Shown here one piece after another: positions 6,391 to 47,344 of a stretch of DNA of 64,000 bases. The notes beneath the pieces were generated by a model. The model searched no databases and was not told where the DNA came from. It saw only the letters and a list, made by a program, of their open reading frames with translations. The position numbers were made by a program, and so were the translations under genes. Position 1 is the first letter of the stretch; the number at the start of each line of letters is the position of its first letter. Source of the DNA: a virus; the IMG/VR virus record IMGVR_UViG_3300008267_000004, positions 64,001 to 128,000 of that record. One strand, given 5' to 3'.

Positions 6391-7725
6391 CTATAATACT
6401 GATGCAGCTAGTGTAGCAACTGCAGAACGTTCACCTTTTTGCAATGTTATATGACCTGTTAGCTCGAATGGTTTAAATTTTTCAACAGCATAAGTTAAAC
6501 CATTGTTAGTCGCATCAAGAAAAGCACTATCAATCTGTTCAATATCACCTGTTAAAACAATTTTAGTATTTTCACCAACTCTTGTAATTATAGTCTTTAA
6601 TTCGTGCATTGTTAAGTTCTGCGCTTCATCAATGATAATAAATGCGTTTGCAATAGAGCGTCCACGAATAAATGTAAGAGCTTCTACTTCAATTGTACCC
6701 TTTTCTTGAAGCATTTGTAGATGCTCTTTATCATCACCCATAAGGAACTCAAGGTTATCTTGGATTGGAGCAACCCAAGGAGCCATTTTTTCTTCTAATG
6801 TTCCTGGCAAGAAACCAATATCACGACCCATCGGTTGCACTGGACGGGATACAATTATTTTCTTATATGTTGTAGACGCTAGAGTTTGCTCTAGTGCTGA
6901 TGCAAGAGCAATAAGTGTCTTACCACACCCAGCAAGACCTACAAGAGACACTATTTTAACATTATCATCCATTAGAAGATCAAAAGCAAATTGTTGCTCT
7001 TTGTTTTTTGCACGCACATCCCATACGCCTTCCTTAAATTCCCGAACTTTTGTTAATGCAAAGTTATAATTACGGAACTTGCATAGGGCGGTTTTCTTTT
7101 CGTTGGCATTTGATACAAGCATTACATACTGATTTGGGTGTAACTTGATGTCTTTTTCTTCTAGGAAGATTTTTTCTCCGTTATAAAAACGATCAACAAG
7201 ATGATCGTCAACAAGATGAGAGGTAAATCCAGTATAAATCTCTTCTTTCATCTCAACAATTTTATTTGTTGTATAATCTTGTGCAAGAATACCAAGGGCA
7301 TCTGCTTTAACTCGCATGTTAATATCTTGTGAAACTAGATACACAGGGCGGCTGGTAGCTGGAATATTCTCTTCTTCCGACATAACGGATAATACAGTAG
7401 CAAGAATTTGATTATCTGGATCTTGCATAGACATTTCTGCAGGGAGTAAACTCTTACCATAGTTTACTACAGTAAGTGTGCCTTTACGACTACCAATTTT
7501 AACACCTTTGTCTAGCTGTCCTTTTTCTCTTAGACCATCAAAAATACGAATTACTTGACGAGCATTTGCGCCAACTCCGTCTTGACGTTTTTTGTGTTTA
7601 TCGATTTCTTCTAGGACTTTTAGTGGCACCACTATATCATTATCTTGAAATGCATATACTGCATTAAAGTCGCTTAAAAAAACATTTGTATCAATTACAT
7701 AAACTTTTTTTGATTTTTTTGCCAT
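6391..7725 (-). CDS. phoH: PIN domain plus PhoH-family ATPase (PhoH2/YlaK-like)
   Basis: YVIDTNVFL (PIN), GLAGCGKT, LPGTLEEKMAPW, FIRGRS, IIDEAQN, LTGDIEQID. Confidence 0.92.
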   Translation of the reverse strand: MAKKSKKVYVIDTNVFLSDFNAVYAFQDNDIVVPLKVLEEIDKHKKRQDGVGANARQVIRIFDGLREKGQLDKGVKIGSRKGTLTVVNYGKSLLPAEMSMQDPDNQILATVLSVMSEEENIPATSRPVYLVSQDINMRVKADALGILAQDYTTNKIVEMKEEIYTGFTSHLVDDHLVDRFYNGEKIFLEEKDIKLHPNQYVMLVSNANEKKTALCKFRNYNFALTKVREFKEGVWDVRAKNKEQQFAFDLLMDDNVKIVSLVGLAGCGKTLIALASALEQTLASTTYKKIIVSRPVQPMGRDIGFLPGTLEEKMAPWVAPIQDNLEFLMGDDKEHLQMLQEKGTIEVEALTFIRGRSIANAFIIIDEAQNLTMHELKTIITRVGENTKIVLTGDIEQIDSAFLDATNNGLTYAVEKFKPFELTGHITLQKGERSAVATLAASVL

Positions 7726-7831: not shown

Positions 7832-8389
7832 TTAAATAGTTTTATTATTATATTTGGTGACAAAATCATTCATAATAATGCTACCAGCCACAGCAGCATT
7901 GAGAGAACGCACACTTCCGTACTGAGGAATATAAACAAACTTTTCACAAAGCTCAAGGGTTTCTGGAGTGATCCCGACACCTTCTTCGCCCAATATAAAT
8001 AGAGGAGGACGGCTATATGTGGCATCGACCAAAGAAGTAGCAGACGGCACAGTATTTTCAAGAGCCACAAGTTCGTATTCCTCTTTTAACTTGAGCAATT
8101 GGTCGCGGGTATTTAGATGGATTACATCAGTATAATTATGAGTTCCAACAGTTCCACGACGATCATAATGCTTACGTCCTAAATAGTATACAGCGCGTAC
8201 ATTAAACGCATTTGCAGAACGAATTACTGTACCAATATTAAAATCTCCAAGAAAATTTTCCATAAGGATTGCATATGGAAATGCTTTTTGTTTCAAATCT
8301 TTCTTGATCAATTCTTTATTCCATTTTGTAAGACGATCATTTTTATATTTGTCAATTACATTCCAATTTTCAATCCCAGGTACTTCCAC
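7832..8389 (-). CDS. SpoU/TrmH-family RNA 2'-O-methyltransferase
   Basis: DFNIGTVIRSANAF, LFILGEEGVGI, IPQYGSVRSLNAAVAGSI. Confidence 0.88.
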   Translation of the reverse strand: MEVPGIENWNVIDKYKNDRLTKWNKELIKKDLKQKAFPYAILMENFLGDFNIGTVIRSANAFNVRAVYYLGRKHYDRRGTVGTHNYTDVIHLNTRDQLLKLKEEYELVALENTVPSATSLVDATYSRPPLFILGEEGVGITPETLELCEKFVYIPQYGSVRSLNAAVAGSIIMNDFVTKYNNKTI

Positions 8390-11134: not shown

Positions 11135-11728
11135 TTATTCCATAATCTTATCTACAAGACCATACTTGAGACAAGTTTTTGCATCCATATATATATCACG
11201 TTTTAAAATTTCTTTTAAGACACTTTTTGGTATTTTTGTATATTTTGTATAAATTTCATTGATTGTATTCATGAACATTGTTGCATTTTCAATTTCGTCT
11301 TTCATACTCTCAAATTTACCCCACATACCGGCAGATAGTTGATGAATAAGCATAACAGAATGTTTTGTAATTGAACGCTTTTTTGCAACAACACTCATAA
11401 GCGTTGCAGCAGAAGCTGCATGACCCTCAATAATAGAATGCACTGGGGCTTTACTGTTTCTAATGTAGTCAATTGCAGAAAAACAGTCTAGCAAACTTCC
11501 ACCACCGCTATTAATGTGTAGTTTGATTTCTGGTGTTGGAATATCTAGCTCAATTCCAGTAAGGACTAGAGCTTTTGACGTTGAAGCGATTTTTTTATTT
11601 AGTTCAAAAATTGACTTCTTCGAAACTCCAGCATAGAAATAAATATTATTATCGTTATCTTCTACATCGCTAGACTCATCAACTGAGTCTTCATCTAATT
11701 TTGGATTTGCATTAAGAATATATTTCAT
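11135..11728 (-). CDS. clpP: ClpP-family protease
   Basis: LHINSGGG, AASAA (catalytic Ser), MLIHQ (His), RDIYMDAKTCLKYGLVD. Confidence 0.88.
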   Translation of the reverse strand: MKYILNANPKLDEDSVDESSDVEDNDNNIYFYAGVSKKSIFELNKKIASTSKALVLTGIELDIPTPEIKLHINSGGGSLLDCFSAIDYIRNSKAPVHSIIEGHAASAATLMSVVAKKRSITKHSVMLIHQLSAGMWGKFESMKDEIENATMFMNTINEIYTKYTKIPKSVLKEILKRDIYMDAKTCLKYGLVDKIME

Positions 11729-12117: not shown

Positions 12118-12406
12118 TGGTGGAGATGCGGGGAGTCGAACCCCGGTCCAAAAATACGTATTCTACAAAATGATACACAGGATTATCTTACAAGATATTA
12201 CAATTTATTACAGTTTAAAACAAAATTGCAACTTTTCTGTTTCGAGGCAAGTTGCCAGCCCAAGAATTACGCAGCTAGGGCGTAGAATTCAGAGTCAACG
12301 TCATCGTTGGCTTTTGTGTTGTTGAACCGTTTATTAAAGTCTGTAGCTGTTCGCAGACTTCCTGCATTTTGTTTTTAGTTACCTTTGTCGAAACCAAGTC
12401 ATCCCC
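12118..12406 (-). ncRNA. ssrA: tmRNA (289 nt), tag peptide ANDDVDSEFYALAA*
   Basis: 5' GGGGAUG...GGUUUCGAC; 3' GGGGUUCGACUCCCCGCAUCUCCACCA; G3.U pair; tag ORF at 12311-12267. Confidence 0.95.
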
Positions 12407-19302: not shown

Positions 19303-19477
19303 TTATCTGAGGATAATTTTCCGGATATTTAACTATCATTGATGCTAAAAATGAGTAACGTGCTGCAGTTGAAAGCCTATAAAATATAGACGATAATTTT
19401 TCCAATTCGGTGTCTGTTAATGGTCTTTTTTGTTGTTCATTCATGTTATTTGTTGTATGGATCAAAAGGAGCCTCAT
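19256..19477 (-). CDS. Hypothetical protein
   Basis: Tiled ORF (likely start MNEQQK). Confidence 0.5.
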   Translation of the reverse strand: MRLLLIHTTNNMNEQQKRPLTDTELEKLSSIFYRLSTAARYSFLASMIVKYPENYPQIIERLGEMYEKTIVRA

Positions 19478-20021
19478 ATGAGAAAAAATCTACGTCAGTT
19501 TCTTTTATCAGTCTTAACCAAACATTTAATGTTCTCTGACAGTCAACTAAAGCTGTATGTGCGCGCCCTTGAAACTTAATTTGGTAGTGTTCGCACAATT
19601 TATCCATTGCAGCACTTTTTAATAAACCTTTAGATACTAGTTTACTAGCCATGTGTTTTGTATCGGCGTAGTGCGGAAAAGTTATTTTTTTTTCTTTGAA
19701 AGCTAAACTAATAAATCTTAGATCAAAGATAAGATTTTGGCCTAATAAGAAAGAAGAATTTGTAATAAACGACTCAATTGCAGGCAAATGGTGTTCAATT
19801 TCTAAAGAATCTTCCCACGCTTCGGGCGTGAACCCATTAACCTTCAATGCTTGCGGCGAAGCCGCCGCGAGATTTTTAGGTTTAATTTTTATATCTAATT
19901 TATCAAGTATACAGATACTGCTGTCATCTTTCAATGAAAAACGAACAGCAGCAAACTGTATAATTTCGTGAACTTTAGGATCTAATCCTGTTGTTTCTGT
20001 ATCAAGAACTGTTACAAGCAT
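19446..20021 (-). CDS. DEDDh 3'-5' exonuclease (DnaQ-like)
   Basis: LDTETTGL, GQNLIFD, ADTKHMA, HTALVDC. Confidence 0.9.
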   Translation of the reverse strand: MLVTVLDTETTGLDPKVHEIIQFAAVRFSLKDDSSICILDKLDIKIKPKNLAAASPQALKVNGFTPEAWEDSLEIEHHLPAIESFITNSSFLLGQNLIFDLRFISLAFKEKKITFPHYADTKHMASKLVSKGLLKSAAMDKLCEHYQIKFQGRAHTALVDCQRTLNVWLRLIKETDVDFFSYEAPFDPYNK

Positions 20022-42286: not shown

Positions 42287-42317
42287 AAAAAAACCCCGCC
42301 TAACTTAATAGGCGGGG
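42287..42317 (-). terminator. Intrinsic terminator ending the tRNA operon
   Basis: CCCCGCCT/AGGCGGGG stem with T7 on the minus strand. Confidence 0.8.
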
Positions 42318-42535
42318 TAAGTGGAAACCACACTAGAATATAATAATGTGTAGCTTATCGGGTTTTGCCATCTCTTCGCGGGCAAGTCACTAGATGCACT
42401 TCAATAACTTTCTAGGCTCTCCATGGGAACATGGAAGGGATAAATGTATGTAAAAATAAAAAGTCCCAAAACCTAGACTGGTGTTCATCAGCATCGTAAA
42501 ACACCATTTACTGTAAAATATGTCCTATCCACTTA
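42318..42535 (-). ncRNA. Unclassified structured RNA, family Y copy C (divergent)
   Basis: Closing stem UAAGUGGA/UCCACUUA; core CUAGUGAC-UUGCC-CGCGAAGAGAU-GGCAA-AACCCGAUAAG. Confidence 0.55.
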
Positions 42536-42555
42536 GTTCTGAATTAAGTACAAAT

Positions 42556-42644
42556 TGGCGGAAAGTGTTGGATTTGAACCAACGGACCCTTTAGGGATCG
42601 ACAGTTTAGCAAACTGCTCGTTTAAGCCGCTCACGCAACTTTCC
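42556..42644 (-). tRNA. tRNA-Ser(GCT)
   Basis: Type II cloverleaf, G73, CCA. Confidence 0.95.
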
Positions 42645-42652
42645 ATGAAAAC

Positions 42653-42728
42653 TGGAGAGGGTAGTAAGATTCGCACTTACGATTGGGAGTTTTGCAGGCT
42701 CCTGCCTTACTCTCTTGGCTATACCCTC
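42653..42728 (-). tRNA. tRNA-Cys(GCA)
   Basis: Loop CTGCAAA, U73, CCA. Confidence 0.92.
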
Positions 42729-42731
42729 ATA

Positions 42732-42820
42732 TGGAGGAAGAAGTGAGATTCGAACTCACGGACCCTTGTGGGATCTCTTGTTTTCTAGACAAGTACCATA
42801 AACCGCTCGGTCATTCTTCC
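42732..42820 (-). tRNA. tRNA-Ser(AGA), rare A34 isoacceptor
   Basis: CTTGT-CTAGAAA-ACAAG arm, long variable arm, U73, CCA. Confidence 0.88.
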
Positions 42821-42827
42821 AAAAAAT

Positions 42828-42903
42828 TGGTAGGTTCAACAGGAATTGCACCTGTACTCTCTCGATTATCAGTCGAGTGCTTTACTAATTAAGCTATGAA
42901 CCC
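42828..42903 (-). tRNA. tRNA-Ile(GAT)
   Basis: CTCGA-CTGATAA-TCGAG arm, CCA. Confidence 0.92.
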
Positions 42904-42914
42904 TCACAAAGCAA

Positions 42915-43118
42915 GTAGTTAACAGGGACACTTCGACTATGGTCCCCAATGGGATCGAAGAAATGTCCTTTTCGATGGGTAACTATCTTCGCTGTTACCA
43001 CACTAGAGTTATTTTTTAGCTTTTAGGCCCATTCCAGATTCTAAGTCTAGGGGAACCAAGGGGGCTTAATCACCAACCCACCTATTATCCCACGCCAGGG
43101 ATTCATCTAGCTAACTAC
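42915..43118 (-). ncRNA. Unclassified structured RNA, family Y copy B
   Basis: Closing stem GUAGUUAGC/GUUAACUAC; UAGAUGAAU; CUAGUGU-GGUAAC-AGCGAAGAUA-GUUACC-CAUCGAAAAG. Confidence 0.7.
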
Positions 43119-43180
43119 AAAAAGTAACCCATCAGTTTGAGGATACTAAGTTTCAGCATAGCCTTGACAGGTTTTGTTAT

Positions 43181-43258
43181 TGGCGAGGAGTACGGGACTT
43201 GAACCCGTGATCTCTGGCGTGACAGGCCAGTGCTTTAAACCAACTAAGCTAACTCCCC
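43181..43258 (-). tRNA. tRNA-Asp(GTC)
   Basis: CTGGC-CTGTCAC-GCCAG arm, CCA. Confidence 0.95.
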
Positions 43259-43269
43259 ATTAAAAGATT

Positions 43270-43354
43270 TGGTAGGGTCAGTCGGATTCGAACCGACACT
43301 CCTTGCGGAACCAGATTTTGAGTCTAGCGTGGCTACCTGTTACACCATGACCCC
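43270..43354 (-). tRNA. tRNA-Leu(CAA)
   Basis: Type II cloverleaf, CCA. Confidence 0.95.
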
Positions 43355-43362
43355 ACAAAAAG

Positions 43363-43706
43363 AACAGCATAAGGTGTGTTACTACACCAAAAGGAACCCA
43401 TACTTGCTACTTTGCATACCTCACGTTATCATCCGCTTGGCACTGTTCTGCTTGTATGCCGGGCATTCTCCTATTCCCCAACCCAGCAGGACTGATTTAT
43501 TTACAATTAAGTTAGTCGTGGTTTACCTACTTAACCCGGCTGATTACGGTTTTGAACCATCTATAGTTTATCGGGGTTTCCATAGACAATTTTCAGTACG
43601 CTTTCGCTCTGTCCACGCTGGAAAACAGCTTAACTAACACCTGCCTAGGATTTCGTCCTACTCATTATAAGATGGCTACTCTTAAGCCAACTTCCCGTAT
43701 GCTGTT
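43363..43706 (-). ncRNA. Large structured RNA (344 nt) with 23S rRNA H43-like segment; GOLLD/ROOL-class candidate
   Basis: Closing stem AACAGCAUA/UAUGCUGUU; GGGAAGUUGGCUUAAGAGUAGCCAUCUUAUAAUGAGU at its 5' end; lies between two tRNAs. Confidence 0.65.
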
Positions 43707-43716
43707 TACAACTATT

Positions 43717-43791
43717 TGGTTCCGGTAGATGGATTCGAACCACCGTTCACAGATTCAAAGTCTGCTGTCCTGCCAGTTAGACGATACCGGA
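43717..43791 (-). tRNA. tRNA-Gln(TTG)
   Basis: GCAGA-CTTTGAA-TCTGT arm, CCA. Confidence 0.93.
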
Positions 43792-43796
43792 TCAAA

Positions 43797-43881
43797 TGGT
43801 GGGCAAGGTCGGAATCGAACCGACACTCCTTTCGGAACTGGCTTCTAAGACCAGCGCGGCTACCAGTTACGCCACCTGCCC
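43797..43881 (-). tRNA. tRNA-Leu(TAG)
   Basis: Type II cloverleaf, CCA. Confidence 0.95.
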
Positions 43882-43890
43882 ATACTACTA

Positions 43891-44289
43891 TTAGAAATCT
43901 ACAATCTTCTTGAATTCAGTACCCGGTTCCATAACCAAGGGTTCCTCGCGTACCTCTACCCAACCGCTGTAGTAGCCGTTTGATGAGTTACGGAATTCAA
44001 TCGTACAGTGACCCTTATCGGTCTTAACCTTGATCATGTTAACCTGGATAAGGTTATAGTTGTCCTCCCATGAATCCCCGCCAACATTCTCGTATTCAAG
44101 GAACTTGGCATTGTCAAACACCAGAGCGTTATCACAATGTTCAAACCATGAATTAGAACAACAATCACCGTAGGCGTTAAGGCTATACCACACACCATCA
44201 ACCTTCCACATCATAACGTCGCGGTTCTGGTTGATAAGCGCATCAGTAATCGTTTTGCCCACCATCGGCTCAAAATCATTATAACCCAT
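43891..44289 (-). CDS. Conserved phage hypothetical protein (possibly DUF7448-like)
   Basis: GDCCSNSWF and RNSSNGYYSG motifs. Confidence 0.7.
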   Translation of the reverse strand: MGYNDFEPMVGKTITDALINQNRDVMMWKVDGVWYSLNAYGDCCSNSWFEHCDNALVFDNAKFLEYENVGGDSWEDNYNLIQVNMIKVKTDKGHCTIEFRNSSNGYYSGWVEVREEPLVMEPGTEFKKIVDF

Positions 44290-44339
44290 AATACACCTAT
44301 ACGATTTGTGGCGGCTGGCAGGCCGCGTTAGACAAAATT

Positions 44340-44413
44340 TGGTGCTTCCACTCAGAATCGAACTGAGAACGCTGCGTTACAAAGGCAGAGTTATACCGTT
44401 TAACTATAGAAGC
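44340..44413 (-). tRNA. tRNA-Thr(TGT)
   Basis: Loop TTTGTAA, CCA. Confidence 0.9.
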
Positions 44414-44418
44414 ATGAT

Positions 44419-44632
44419 GAATCTGCAATTGAAAGATTGAATTTCAATGGGGTTTGCAAGCCCTATTCAACCCTTGTCGATGGCAAACGATCTTCGCTGT
44501 TTGCACACTAGCTGCTTTGTTTGTTAATTGCTCTGATGCCGCTTAACAGAGTTGGCAACTCCTAGTCGTCAGTTTGCATGGTGTAAGTAGCAAAACATCC
44601 ACTAAAGTTATTCATCTATCTTTTGCAGATTC
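44419..44632 (-). ncRNA. Unclassified structured RNA, family Y copy A
   Basis: 10-bp closing stem GAAUCUGCAA/UUGCAGAUUC; UAGAUGAAU; CUAGUGU-GCAAAC-AGCGAAGAUC-GUUUGC-CAUCGACAAG. Confidence 0.7.
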
Positions 44633-44636
44633 AAAT

Positions 44637-44711
44637 TGGTTGGAGAACTAGGATTCGAACCTAGATAGGCAGATTCAGAGTCTGCCGTCCTGCCCGTTAG
44701 ACGATTCCCCA
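44637..44711 (-). tRNA. tRNA-Gln(CTG)
   Basis: GCAGA-CTCTGAA-TCTGC arm, CCA. Confidence 0.95.
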
Positions 44712-44716
44712 ACAAA

Positions 44717-44793
44717 TGGCGAGGATAGTAGGAGTTGAACCTACAACTTCCAGACTCGTAATCTGGTACTCTCTCCAATTGAGTTATATCCCC
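44717..44793 (-). tRNA. tRNA-Arg(ACG)
   Basis: CCAGA-TTACGAG-TCTGG arm, CCA. Confidence 0.93.
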
Positions 44794-44797
44794 ATGT

Positions 44798-44871
44798 TGG
44801 CAGGTCGTGAAGGAATCGAACCCTCGTCAACTGATTTGGAGGCAGTTATGTTTCCATTACACTAACGACCC
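44798..44871 (-). tRNA. tRNA-Trp(CCA)
   Basis: Loop CTCCAAA, CCA end. Confidence 0.9.
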
Positions 44872-44878
44872 ACTAACC

Positions 44879-45259
44879 TTACGTTTCTGACTTTGTTTCC
44901 TCTGCTGGGGTTTCATCCTTAACATAACGCAGGGCAAGATGATTAAAGATATCTACCTTGACGTTATAACTAAGTTCAACCTCAACAATATCGCAGTTCA
45001 GATATGGATTGTGCTTCATATCAGCAAATGCACCAAAGTCAAACGTGCTAAATCTTCCATCCTGTCCACGCTTTAGAACAGCATTTCTTCCGTAATAATT
45101 ATCTTTGTATACATTGGTTAGATGTAGGTTAAGAGTCTTTAACGAATCCCACATTTTACCATGACGACCAAAACACGGCCAACTTGATCCAGATGAAAAA
45201 AGACCATCTTTACGACGACGAATCATATAGATTTTATTTTCTTCCTGCTTTTCCTTCAT
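44879..45259 (-). CDS. Hypothetical phage protein
   Basis: IRRRKDGLFSSGSSWP...GKMW motif; SD. Confidence 0.65.
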   Translation of the reverse strand: MKEKQEENKIYMIRRRKDGLFSSGSSWPCFGRHGKMWDSLKTLNLHLTNVYKDNYYGRNAVLKRGQDGRFSTFDFGAFADMKHNPYLNCDIVEVELSYNVKVDIFNHLALRYVKDETPAEETKSET

Positions 45260-45286
45260 ATTATCCTCAAGTAGTTAGAACATATT

Positions 45287-45361
45287 TGGTGACCCTACAG
45301 GGAATTGAACCCTGATCTAGAGATTGAGAATCTCTTGTCCTAACCTTTAGACGATAGGGCC
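45287..45361 (-). tRNA. tRNA-Glu(CTC)
   Basis: AGAGA-TTCTCAA-TCTCT arm, CCA. Confidence 0.93.
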
Positions 45362-45365
45362 AAAT

Positions 45366-45441
45366 TGGGGTGGACAACGGGAATCGAACCCGTATAGCCG
45401 GAGTCACAGTCCAGTACTTTAACCATTTAAGATATGTCCAC
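45366..45441 (-). tRNA. tRNA-His(GTG)
   Basis: Loop CTGTGAC, C73, CCA; encoded -1 base is U. Confidence 0.92.
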
Positions 45442-45446
45442 ACTTT

Positions 45447-45523
45447 TGGTTGAAACGGTGGGAGTCGAACCCACAATAATCTGCGTATGAGACAGATGCT
45501 TTAACCTGTTAAGCTACGTTTCA
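45447..45523 (-). tRNA. tRNA with CAT anticodon (elongator Met or Ile2; not initiator)
   Basis: TCTGT-CTCATAC-GCAGA arm, U1-A72 paired, CCA. Confidence 0.88.
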
Positions 45524-45530
45524 ACGATCT

Positions 45531-45605
45531 TGGTCGGAACAACAGGATTTGAACCTGTAACATTCTGCGTGTAAAGCAGACGCTCTACCATTGAGCTATG
45601 TTCCG
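45531..45605 (-). tRNA. tRNA-Val(TAC)
   Basis: TCTGC-TTTACAC-GCAGA arm, CCA. Confidence 0.93.
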
Positions 45606-45617
45606 ATAAAACAAAAT

Positions 45618-45694
45618 TGGTCGGGGTAGCAGGATTCGAACCTGCGACCTCTTGATCCCAAATCAAGCGCACTACCAAGCTGTGCTATACCCCG
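45618..45694 (-). tRNA. tRNA-Pro(TGG)
   Basis: CTTGA-TTTGGGA-TCAAG arm, CCA. Confidence 0.95.
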
Positions 45695-45698
45695 GTTA

Positions 45699-45785
45699 TG
45701 GTGGGAGATGAAGGAGTCGCGCCTACGGAGTCCCATGGACGATAGATTTACAGTCTACCCCGTCCCTCTAACGGTATAACCTCCC
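45699..45785 (-). tRNA. tRNA-Tyr(GTA), deviant T-loop
   Basis: GTAGA-CTGTAAA-TCTAT arm, long variable arm, T-loop CGCGACT, CCA. Confidence 0.85.
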
Positions 45786-45819
45786 ATTTCTAATTATCTT
45801 AACAGTCTCCAAAAAAAGT

Positions 45820-46012
45820 CCAGCTTTTTCGCCAAGAAGCTGGAAACTTGTTCGATGCTGGCTGATTTATAGCTTTCGCTATACGAGAACCACTCGCTTT
45901 CTTAATGTTAGTGGAACCTTTTTGCTCCATCGCAAGCATTGGCAGTTCCAAGCCAAAATCTTTTTTCTGTGAGTTGATTGCCCGAAAGGAAACACAGATG
46001 GTAGATTAGACC
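45820..46012 (-). ncRNA. Unclassified structured RNA, family X copy 2
   Basis: Homologous ends to 10534-10657 with a larger central insert. Confidence 0.65.
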
Positions 46013-46021
46013 GAAAAAGAA

Positions 46022-46124
46022 AGACGAGTCAGTACCGCTTAATTGCAGTTAAGCTTCCTTCGCTTCTGCAAGAACCGCACATAAGATTCCCGCTCATATT
46101 GGGGAATCTTATGTGCGCTCGTCT
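46022..46124 (-). ncRNA. Structured RNA with a 16-bp hairpin and a possible pseudoknot
   Basis: AGACGAG/CUCGUCU closing stem; CGCACAUAAGAUUCCC/GGGAAUCUUAUGUGCG; UUGCAG/CUGCAA and GCUUAA/UUAAGC. Confidence 0.5.
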
Positions 46125-46126
46125 AA

Positions 46127-46202
46127 TGGTGAATCGGGAGGGAATCGAACCCTCAACAAACTGGTTAAGAGCCAGTTACTCTACCAATTGAGTTACCGAT
46201 TC
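46127..46202 (-). tRNA. tRNA-Lys(CTT)
   Basis: ACTGG-CTCTTAA-CCAGT arm, CCA. Confidence 0.93.
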
Positions 46203-46207
46203 ATATT

Positions 46208-46283
46208 TGGTGCTGCCCCTTGGAATCGAACCAAGTTCAAAGGCTCTTCAGACCTCCGCTATGACCACATCAGCTAAAGCAGC
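46208..46283 (-). tRNA. tRNA-Phe(GAA)
   Basis: Loop CTGAAGA, CCA. Confidence 0.9.
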
Positions 46284-46288
46284 ATAAT

Positions 46289-46363
46289 TGGTGACCCTAA
46301 GCGGATTTGAACCGCTGTAACAGCCTTGAAAGGGCTGTGTCCTAACCGTTAGACGATAGGGCC
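46289..46363 (-). tRNA. tRNA-Glu(TTC)
   Basis: CAGCC-CTTTCAA-GGCTG arm, CCA. Confidence 0.95.
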
Positions 46364-46428
46364 ATGAAAGATGACCCCTGCGTACCCGAATAGTCTACAG
46401 ACTAAACGGGCAGAGGCAAGGGCCGTTA

Positions 46429-46505
46429 TGGTAGGAAATGTGAGATTCGAACTCACGACCAATCGCTTAAAAGGCGAGTGCTCTAACCGACTGAGCTAAT
46501 TTCCC
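46429..46505 (-). tRNA. tRNA-Lys(TTT)
   Basis: Loop CTTTTAA, CCA. Confidence 0.92.
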
Positions 46506-46511
46506 ATGAAT

Positions 46512-46587
46512 TGGCTGATCCGGTAGGATTCGAACCTACGGTAGGCGAGTTAACAGCTCGCTGCCTTACCTGCTTGGCTACGGATCA
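46512..46587 (-). tRNA. tRNA-Asn(GTT)
   Basis: GCGAG-CTGTTAA-CTCGC arm, CCA. Confidence 0.95.
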
Positions 46588-46778
46588 ACATATTCTTTTA
46601 GTACAGATTCTGTTAGGGTTATAGTAACTTCGTTACCATTTCGTCTATGCTTACCGACTACATAATAAACTCCGCTATTACTACCATACCACAAATTTGG
46701 TCCAACGATTCGCATTGGCTGAATAATCTCTTCTGAGAAGATACAAGTTACAAGATCACCCGGCTTAAAACGATTCAT
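46578..46778 (-). CDS. Small SH3/KOW-like protein inside the tRNA operon
   Basis: FKPGDLV; SD GGAG; stop overlaps the tRNA-Asn 5' end. Confidence 0.55.
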   Translation of the reverse strand: MNRFKPGDLVTCIFSEEIIQPMRIVGPNLWYGSNSGVYYVVGKHRRNGNEVTITLTESVLKEYVDP

Positions 46779-46793
46779 TGAACTCTCCTAAAT

Positions 46794-46870
46794 TGGCGAT
46801 CCCGGCAGGAGTCGAACCTGCAACCTAGTGGGTAGAAGCCACTTGCTCTATCCAATTGAGCTACGGAACC
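46794..46870 (-). tRNA. tRNA-Arg(TCT)
   Basis: AGTGG-CTTCTAC-CCACT arm, CCA. Confidence 0.95.
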
Positions 46871-46877
46871 ATTAAAT

Positions 46878-46963
46878 TGGTAGGTGTGGACGGACTCGAA
46901 CCGTCAAGCCTGTTAAGGCAACAGATTTTAAGTCTGTCGTGTATACCATTCCACCACACACCC
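46878..46963 (-). tRNA. tRNA-Leu(TAA)
   Basis: Type II cloverleaf, CCA. Confidence 0.95.
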
Positions 46964-47047
46964 ATATGGGCAAGTTTTTGTCAAGGGAACTTGCAAACCC
47001 GTCAGAGTATTTCTGTTGGAAACCAACAATGGCATCTCTTTGCCTTA

Positions 47048-47138
47048 TGGTGCGCCGTGAGGGAATCGAACCCACACTAAGGCCGATAATCTGTCGGAAG
47101 GAGTTTATAAGTCTCCCCTGCATCCAATGCGACGGCGC
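47048..47138 (-). tRNA. Atypical tRNA with TAT anticodon (Ile-UAU-like)
   Basis: GCGCCGU/ACGGCGC acceptor, tiny D-arm GCA-UUGGA-UGC, loop CTTATAA, long variable arm, CCA. Confidence 0.75.
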
Positions 47139-47221
47139 ATAACTTACATTAATTACTATATCATACTTAATTCAGTTGTTAAAGAGCAAAGTTTTTTTCT
47201 TTCTCACTTAATTACCTGCCC

Positions 47222-47277
47222 ATTATAGCACAAGCAAAAGTGCCGGTCAAGAAGAAAAAAACAGCAGCGATAGAGTA
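47222..47277 (-). promoter_or_regulatory. tRNA-operon promoter with TACTCTATC box
   Basis: TTGACC-17 bp-TATAAT; box at 47277-47269. Confidence 0.85.
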
Positions 47278-47314
47278 AAAATTTCATTCATAACGCTGCA
47301 CAACCGCCCGGTAG

Positions 47315-47344
47315 ATTATACCACAAGTCGGCGGGCGGAGTCAA
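47315..47344 (-). promoter_or_regulatory. Second tRNA-operon promoter
   Basis: TTGACT-18 bp-TGG-TATAAT, GC-rich discriminator. Confidence 0.8.

Follow-up and report, generated by a model that had tools for sequence, protein, structure and literature searches.

The window analysed here is the whole 64,000-nt stretch of DNA which covers bases 64001-128000 of the IMG/VR virus record IMGVR_UViG_3300008267_000004, a record of 187,450 bp. It carries 24 tRNA genes on its minus strand (42556-46963) and a tmRNA at 12118-12406. The 362-nt gap separating the tRNA-Gln and tRNA-Leu genes of this array holds, on the same strand as the tRNAs, an RNA which resembles the GTPase-associated centre (GAC) of 23S rRNA, that is the top of helix 42 (H42) together with helices 43 and 44 (H43 and H44; E. 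coli 1051-1108), also called the uL11/thiostrepton domain. Here we describe this RNA, the family around it and the role which it may have. The window RNA is one of a large family of non-coding RNAs of phages, each of which rebuilds the 58-nt GAC from its two ends, and there is very little doubt about its own identity as a phage GAC mimic. The family is in no Rfam 15 model, and no description of such an RNA was found in full-text searches of open papers and preprints, subscription journals being outside their coverage.

Resemblance to 23S rRNA and anatomy of the RNA

The original prediction, which was made from the letters of the window, had quoted a 37-mer as a look-alike of the bacterial 23S rRNA, and this 37-mer is found at 43696-43660 of the minus strand. 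The 9-bp stem which was said to close the segment, AACAGCAUA/UAUGCUGUU (43706-43698 with 43371-43363), is given alike by the minimum free energy (MFE) fold, by the covariance model of the family and by RNAalifold on four relatives. The likeness itself was checked by blastn as had been suggested, and 27/34 identities were obtained against E. coli rrlH (L002) at 23S 1055-1088 with an E value of 4e-4, which applies to a comparison of 362 x 2904 nt by sensitive blastn; with default scoring, blastn of the RNA against the E. coli genomes gave no match. The identity had been put at about 30 of 37, and 29/37 were counted by eye against one 23S from Clostridia (L183). Four of the seven differences from E. 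coli make up two compensated pairs, 1058:1080 and 1082:1086, each changed from U:A to A:U. In view of the 27/34 match and of these compensated pairs, the resemblance to 23S rRNA is therefore real and not due to chance.

The remainder of the RNA had been described as not rRNA-like, which was wrong, as the segment 43388-43373 (GGUGUAGUAACACACC) is the H44 half of the same rRNA domain. The equivalents of G1054 and G1055 (43696-43695) pair with those of C1105 and C1104 (43373-43374), and the copy of the rRNA is split by the insert between positions 1090 and 1091. All parts of the RNA are given in Table 1 along with the other features of the window.

Table 1. Parts of the GAC-mimic RNA and other features of the window, with positions counted from the first base of the window
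Feature	Position	Strand	Remarks
Whole RNA, 347 nt, member of the GAC-mimic family	43362..43708	-	model R1
P1 5' strand AACAGCAUA, replaces H42	43698..43706	-	MFE fold, R1 alignment, RNAalifold
G1054, G1055 and G1056 equivalents	43694..43696	-	sequence and R1 alignment
H43 mimic (23S 1057-1081), stem GUUGGCU/AGCCAUC, A1067 in loop, U at 1072	43669..43693	-	
Junction AUAAU (1082-1086), tertiary pair 1082:1086 = A:U	43664..43668	-	
GAGU (1087-1090), lower 5' strand of H44 including A1088	43660..43663	-	
Px 5' strand AGGA, helix closing the insert	43656..43659	-	pairs with UCCU 43395-43392
Variable insert, 260 nt	43396..43655	-	includes block GGUUGGGGAAUAGGAGAA at 43483-43466
Px 3' strand UCCU	43392..43395	-	
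UUUG linker from Px to H44, hallmark of the family	43388..43391	-	
H44 top GUGUAGUAAC (1091-1100), U1092-A1099 pair, A1095	43378..43387	-	
ACACC (1101-1105)	43373..43377	-	A1101 opposite U1090; C1102 opposite G1087
P1 3' strand UAUGCUGUU	43363..43371	-	9 bp with 43706-43698
tRNA-Gln(UUG)	43717..43791	-	upstream of the RNA; end 10 nt ahead of P1
tRNA-Leu(CAA)	43270..43354	-	downstream of the RNA; start 8 nt past P1
Three near-consensus sigma-70-like promoters, extended -10	47155..47344	-	pattern scan only; two 11/12, one 10/12; upstream of the array
Terminator-like hairpin, 10 bp, 7 G-C, then T run	42293..42318	-	pattern scan only; downstream of the array
PIN-PhoH fusion	6391-7725	-	
TrmH/RlmB-like SpoU methyltransferase	7832-8389	-	
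ClpP protease	11135-11728	-	
RNase T-like exonuclease	19446-20021	-	

The phage RNA family and its conserved fold

Nucleotide searches found no cultured phage close to the source phage, and its proteins stay under 40% identity even in the best match to a phage in culture. The RNA gave no match by blastn against 50,697 phage records, and an exact-pattern scan for its own H43 also found none. The viral contigs were first scanned with the H43 stem fixed and its loop left free, and at least 117 loci were obtained. Among the matches listed, only two are true 23S, and about 100 carry the consensus GGRAN-GUUGGCUUAGAAGCAGCCAUC-NY-YUAAR-GAGU followed by unrelated sequence; in nearly all of the matches listed a second block, UUUGGCGUAAYAGCACAC, which is helix 44, comes 76-476 nt downstream. 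The bases right after GAGU pair with the bases right before UUUG, and those before GG pair with those after ACAC. With helix 44 in the second block and both of these flanking pairings, the family therefore copies the GAC in a self-closed form, which has from 5' to 3' the layout of P1 (standing for H42), H43, the 1082-1086 junction, GAGU, a variable domain closed by Px, UUUG, the top of H44, ACAC and again P1. Several hundred members are present in the viral contigs.

For the analysis of pairing, 29 small members were aligned by MAFFT (alignment A1), the GAC-type structure was written on the alignment and the pairs were counted. In this alignment 92.1% of the cells pair, as against 69.7% in shuffles and 34-53% in slid controls, and the covariation score of 0.574 (0.150 in shuffles) was reached by 0/500 shuffles. 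Double changes occur in all pairs of P1 (9) and Px (4) and at 1058:1080, 1082:1086 and 1092:1099, and the pair 1055:1104 is G:C in 23/29 sequences; H43 is invariant here because the search pattern had fixed it. The covariance model R1 was then built from A1, that is from 29 other phage sequences with the window RNA outside the seed, and it gave a single match in the 64-kb window, at 43362-43708, with 74 bits and an E value of 4.6e-24, the match running from position 1 to 189 of the 189 in the model. R1 also retrieves the genuine GAC of E. coli (L002:1301-1375, which is 23S 1042-1116), with 51.6 bits and an insert of zero length, and the Rfam large subunit rRNA (LSU) model gives sub-threshold local matches in two family members at model positions ~1084-1153, which is the GAC.

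The second scan was done on 185,579 species genomes with the 3' block alone, and 33 of its 57 loci have strong full-length R1 matches. In the sequences for which H43 had played no part in the selection, its stem covaries (G1063-C1075 and C1064-G1074 are both found as A-U, for example), the positions U1060, A1077, U1083-A1085 and G1087-U1090 are invariant, and 1061 varies freely. GAGU is invariant in 34/34 sequences picked regardless of that segment, and of ~75 sequences 70-75 have U at each of the first three positions of the UUUG linker, and 67/75 have its G. A third scan, with the U1092/A1099 form of the 3' block, gave at least 116 loci and 48 distinct R1 matches. In this 48-sequence set, the alignment of which was fitted to the model, 90.0% of the cells pair (65.8% in shuffles) and double changes are seen in 5/8 H43 pairs. 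All 4 Px pairs covary in the family, this set included.

The tertiary contacts of the GAC were also looked for in these sequences. The pair 1082:1086 is U:A, C:G and A:U in 12, 11 and 2 sequences of A1 and in 34, 2 and 8 sequences of the 48-sequence set. The 1072/1092/1099 triple is CCG in 62, UUA in 5 and mixed in 0 of the 67 sequences selected on H43, and in the set selected on the U1092/A1099 3' module alone 1072 is U in all but one; the window RNA itself has the UUA triple and A:U at 1082:1086. This base triple is the sharpest signal. The same CCG/UUA covariation was reportedly used by Conn, Gutell and Draper in 1998 to infer the triple of the rRNA.

An isolated rRNA fragment of 58-60 nt folds compactly by itself and binds uL11, the C-terminal domain of which stabilises the fold, and U1061A is a stabilising change in this fragment (PMC1802607). 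The interface with the C-terminal domain is formed by nucleotides 1058-1060, 1062-1065, 1075-1083 and 1088 (PMC1802607). In the sets unselected on them, these published interface positions are 79-100% conserved or covary as pairs in the family, and the insertion point 1090/1091 is outside the interface list. The loop nucleotides which face thiostrepton and the factors are kept less strictly; A1095 is 97% and A1098 100% conserved.

Taken against the GAC of 23S rRNA, the mimic has the same H43 and H44 sequences, the same junction UAA, A1088 and U1060, and the same 1082:1086 pair and 1072/(1092-1099) triple, each covarying in the same way; position 1061 varies in both RNAs. It differs in being a stand-alone gene in a phage tRNA array with a private helix instead of the long H42, in having a domain of 41-441 nt between 1090 and 1091 which is followed by the UUUG linker, and in that 1090/1101 is always U/A whereas 1067, 1096 and 1097 are relaxed.

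The insert, 41-441 nt long over the family, falls into subfamilies, and the shortest members of the family are 120 nt in all. In 17/67 members it has a module RYCACCCC-loop-UGGUAAGGRY with a covarying stem, and the spacing between this module and the 3' block is constant. The core of the sarcin-ricin loop, AGUACGAGAGGA, is present in seven or eight long members of 377-520 nt, on stems which differ yet remain complementary; the hairpin is carried by L017, L033, L042, L102, L111, L198 and L241, and an altered form of it, AGUACAGAAGGAA, is found in L052. The window RNA has no match to AGUACGAGAGGA with up to 2 substitutions and no canonical sarcin-ricin hairpin. Its block AAUAGGAGAAUG was considered as a sarcin-ricin core and was rejected, as only 7/12 positions fit (our own count) and the bulged G is absent. 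The insert of the window RNA is homologous to those of L205, L223 and L230, with which it has the block GGUUGGGGAAUAGGAGAA in common, and four relatives are too few to fix the structure of the insert.

The sequence of the mimic was also compared with the 23S of the host. The host 23S of Flintibacter muris and of bacterium D16-76 reads GCCACUCAUUAAAAGAGU, whereas the resident mimic keeps GCCAUCAUYUAARGAGU, and a similar mismatch between the mimic and its own 23S is found in a Bdellovibrio metagenome-assembled genome (MAG). The phages of enterobacteria, Pseudomonas, Aeromonas and Xanthomonas have U:A, G:C or A:U at 1058:1080, and the phages of gamma-proteobacterial hosts with identical rRNA differ at this pair; these phages carry GAGU where E. 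coli 23S has GAAA, with the exception of XacN1, which has GAAU. The mimic does not track the 23S of its host, and therefore the family evolves independently while holding the fold.

Members are mostly in contigs of 100-430 kb among the matches listed, and some phages have two copies (L142, L071, L244 and L211). The RNA is flanked by tRNAs on the same strand in about half of the loci, where the upstream tRNA often ends 11-17 nt ahead of H43, i.e. just before P1. The loci without tRNAs adjoin genes of RNA repair or tRNA maturation, such as a kinase-phosphatase-RNA ligase 1 (Pnkp-RNA ligase) fusion in Flintibacter muris and a CCA-adding enzyme in the L034 group, and the neighbour in the Xanthomonas phage XacN1 is a gene annotated as 2'-5' RNA ligase. 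Five cultured carriers were confirmed with R1, namely Aeromonas phage 4_4572, Pseudomonas phage pf16, XacN1, Serratia phage BF and Cronobacter phage GAP32. The site is unannotated in each of them, and the copy of pf16 lies between tRNA-Asn and tRNA-Pro. Paenibacillus phage Pd_22F (L181, MZ092003.1 ~83964-84038) was rejected as a member because it has ordinary 23S with contiguous H43-H44, GCUCACUGGUCGAG, which is probably host DNA or a misassembly.

Possible role of the RNA and competing explanations

The tRNA array looks like one transcription unit because it is bracketed by the promoters and the terminator of Table 1, which are pattern matches only. The RNA would be transcribed together with the 24-tRNA array from the strong promoters near 47.2-47.3 kb and would be freed by the enzymes which trim tRNA-Gln and tRNA-Leu (RNase P and 3' end processing). 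It would then take up the GAC tertiary fold and bind host uL11 via the H43-side surface, which the insert leaves free, and the uL11-RNA particle would act off the ribosome by imitating or decoying the factor-docking site. The uL11 so bound would be that of the host because the phage encodes neither uL11 nor bL12. As the best explanation overall we take the RNA to be a tRNA-operon RNA with the GAC fold which binds host uL11 as an off-ribosome factor-docking decoy, and we lean towards this explanation by a little. Among its parts, the binding of uL11 is fairly probable; the original prediction of an rRNA mimic able to bind uL11 is backed here by sequence analysis, and what is reproduced is the complete GAC and not H43 alone. 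The decoy role is put at about even chances.

As to the target which may be diverted, a GAC-directed effector (a toxin or antibiotic acting on H43/H44) is preferred over uL11, and uL11 over a translational GTPase. A GAC-directed effector is attractive since such enzymes exist (Tre23) and since the RNA accompanies tRNAs and RNA-repair genes, both well known as countermeasures against defences that target RNA. The family may be a new class of phage RNA, a separate copy of the factor-docking site which carries host uL11 and, in some members, a sarcin-ricin loop as well, and which could protect or reprogram translation in the infected cell by diverting a GAC effector (toxin, RelA-dependent signalling or translational GTPase); in this complete form the proposal is tentative and falls somewhat short of an even chance. 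We know of no defence system in the conflicts of phages with their hosts that is directed at the GAC. As a GAC-directed enzyme only Tre23 can be cited, an interbacterial toxin which ADP-ribosylates H44 at 1095-1098 and blocks the GTPase of EF-G (PMC8661411), and in this the mimic differs from the counter-defence mimics. Among the latter, pseudo-ToxI of phage PhiTE is an instance of phage RNA mimicry as counter-defence (PMC3475682), and it too is a phage RNA imitating a host RNA, with a possible use against abortive-infection toxins. Phage tRNA arrays, which replace tRNAs cut by host defences, have the same neighbourhood of tRNAs and RNA repair as the mimic. The ribosomal-protein mRNA leaders (Rfam L10_leader RF00557 and those of the L1 and S15 type) likewise imitate the rRNA site of a protein outside the ribosome, but they are cis-acting 5' untranslated regions of ribosomal-protein operons with a local motif, whereas the mimic is a separate RNA with an entire tertiary domain. 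The window RNA is no such leader, being flanked by tRNAs in a 187-kb genome in which no uL11 or bL12 gene was found.

Several observations weigh against the uL11-bound decoy. Folded as a whole, the 362-nt gap has an MFE which does not surpass that of shuffles (z -0.7, and -1.0 in a second run), because of which the element would be missed by thermodynamic folding alone, and a local hairpin of the window RNA, UAGGA-CGAAA-UCCUA, competes with Px. The insert adjoins A1088 and position 1089, whose counterparts in rRNA are engaged in tertiary contacts. The factor-contacting loops are looser than in rRNA, with A at 1067 in 82-85% of members and G in the rest, A or G at 1096, and U, C or A at 1097, and this weakens any model that requires an exact copy of the loops. 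Any decoy must also face the competition of tens of thousands of ribosomes. When the open reading frames within 3 kb of the RNA were clustered over 90 distinct loci, no cluster extended to more than 7 of them; with no conserved neighbour gene and no phage uL11 or bL12, no partner can be read from the genome.

The RNA could work more simply as a sponge, which captures only free or exchangeable uL11 and so leaves new or existing ribosomes without uL11, with no activation of RelA and a blunted host stringent response in the infected cell. Mutants of relC (uL11) are relaxed and viable, conservation in the RNA is highest at the contact surface for the C-terminal domain of uL11, a tRNA operon behind strong predicted promoters suits a high copy number, and a sponge is simpler than a decoy for a GAC-directed effector. 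However, near-stoichiometric amounts would be required, and neither the sarcin-ricin loop added in one subfamily, which uL11 does not bind, nor the conservation of A1095, A1098 and in most members A1067, which face the factors and not the C-terminal domain of uL11, is explained; we regard the sponge as unlikely. The uL11-bound RNA, joined in long members by the sarcin-ricin loop, could also be a pseudo docking site which traps or activates EF-G, IF2, RF3, BipA, LepA, HflX or RelA. The joining of GAC and sarcin-ricin mimics in 7 or 8 long members fits this, both being rRNA elements touched by factors, but the window RNA and most members are without a canonical sarcin-ricin hairpin and abundant factors would swamp the RNA, which makes such a trap improbable. 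It is also quite improbable that the GAC module is a mere stable, protein-coated handle and that the function resides in the variable insert: although long inserts do occur in subfamilies with conserved blocks (CACCCC...GGUAAGG in 17/67, the sarcin-ricin hairpins, and GGUUGGGGAAUAGGAGAA of the window), the GAC module is the only universally conserved part, inserts go down to 41 nt and no insert motif is found in all members.

A captured fragment or pseudogene of the host 23S, or host contamination of the assembly, would account for the high 23S identity over 34 nt, and some viral records do contain pieces of true 23S (L100, L116 and Pd_22F). The split GAC, the null result of the LSU model, the constant features of the family and the mismatch with the host 23S refute this explanation and leave it with practically no probability. 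Of the 23S the RNA has the 58-nt GAC alone, interrupted by 260 nt, closed by a helix of its own and flanked by tRNAs, and the LSU model, run over all of the 187-kb genome at E up to 10, gave no match. GAGU, U1090-A1101 and the UUUG linker stay the same in phages whose hosts are unrelated, and in three of the searched genomes which have both a mimic and a 23S gene (two isolates and one MAG) the two differ. A domain of a giant RNA of the GOLLD or ROOL class, spanning 42.9-43.7 kb with the embedded tRNAs, had been offered as another possibility. GOLLD (RF01998) and ROOL (RF03087) are also large structured RNAs, often of phages and near tRNAs, and only size and the tRNA neighbourhood speak for this class, whereas the boundaries of the RNA are set by P1, members of 120 nt exist and no shared motif was seen. 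The cmscan-type check against Rfam 15 matched only tRNAs and the tmRNA (whole window at gathering score; 42400-47200 at E up to 10), with no GOLLD, ROOL or ribosomal-protein leader, and 17 related loci likewise gave no GOLLD or ROOL and only sub-threshold local LSU matches at the GAC. For the Rfam 15 models the GOLLD/ROOL assignment is thus refuted, and its chance is taken as negligible.

If the uL11-bound decoy is true, this would be the first RNA gene known to us that copies a whole rRNA tertiary domain for use off the ribosome, and it would mark an unexplored front of phage-host conflict at the base of the ribosomal stalk, involving uL11, the stringent response, GAC-directed toxins and thiopeptides. 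The family is present in hundreds of large phages from many habitats and host phyla, and it provides a natural set of insert-bearing GAC variants for studying recognition by uL11 and the factors. The proposal is directly testable via the cultured carriers (pf16, 4_4572, GAP32, BF and XacN1) and via the likely prophage in Flintibacter muris DSM 110149.

Further observations in the tRNA array and at related loci

A gene for a 730-aa fusion protein (L160:2522-4714) lies ~1.2 kb downstream of the family RNA on contig C4 of Flintibacter muris DSM 110149, near 81 kb. The protein joins a P-loop kinase with a metallophosphoesterase and an RNA ligase of the T4 Rnl1 type, and is an RNA-repair enzyme. 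The locus is probably an anti-defence island of a prophage, since several DNA methyltransferases come after the RNA-repair fusion.

A cluster of genes related to RNA and translation is present near the tmRNA of the window and has a PIN-PhoH fusion, a TrmH/RlmB-like SpoU methyltransferase, a ClpP protease and an RNase T-like exonuclease. The SpoU enzyme (7832-8389) had been linked to the RNA as its possible methylase, and comparison with protein models gave this link no support, as the protein is a generic TrmH/RlmB-like 2'-O-methyltransferase which stays under every curated cut-off; as a Tsr-like A1067 methylase it was rejected on the same ground.

Some other gaps of the tRNA array, all on the minus strand, also have structured sequence. 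The 432-nt gap at 45695-46126 folds much better than shuffles (z -4.9), and its last ~88 nt (45695-45782) resemble an uncalled class-II tRNA with the anticodon loop CUGUAAA (GUA, Tyr) and the acceptor GGGAGGU/AUCUCCC followed by ACCA; its T arm is atypical, and neither ARAGORN nor the Rfam tRNA model called it. Another tRNA-like sequence at 47051-47139 has a long variable arm, the acceptor GCGCCGU/ACGGCGC followed by ACCA, a good T arm and the anticodon loop CUUAUAA; it is not called by ARAGORN, and its sole match is a weak one to Rfam tRNA-Sec (24.5 bits). The gaps at 42904-43180 and 44414-44636 have in common a block of ~40 nt, CUAGUGUG-NN-AACAGCGAAGAU-N-GUU-NN-CCAUCGA-N-AAGG, of which an exact-pattern scan of the viral contigs found no further copy. 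The hairpin stem of this block is GGUAAC/GUUACC in one gap and GCAAAC/GUUUGC in the other, which is a compensatory change.

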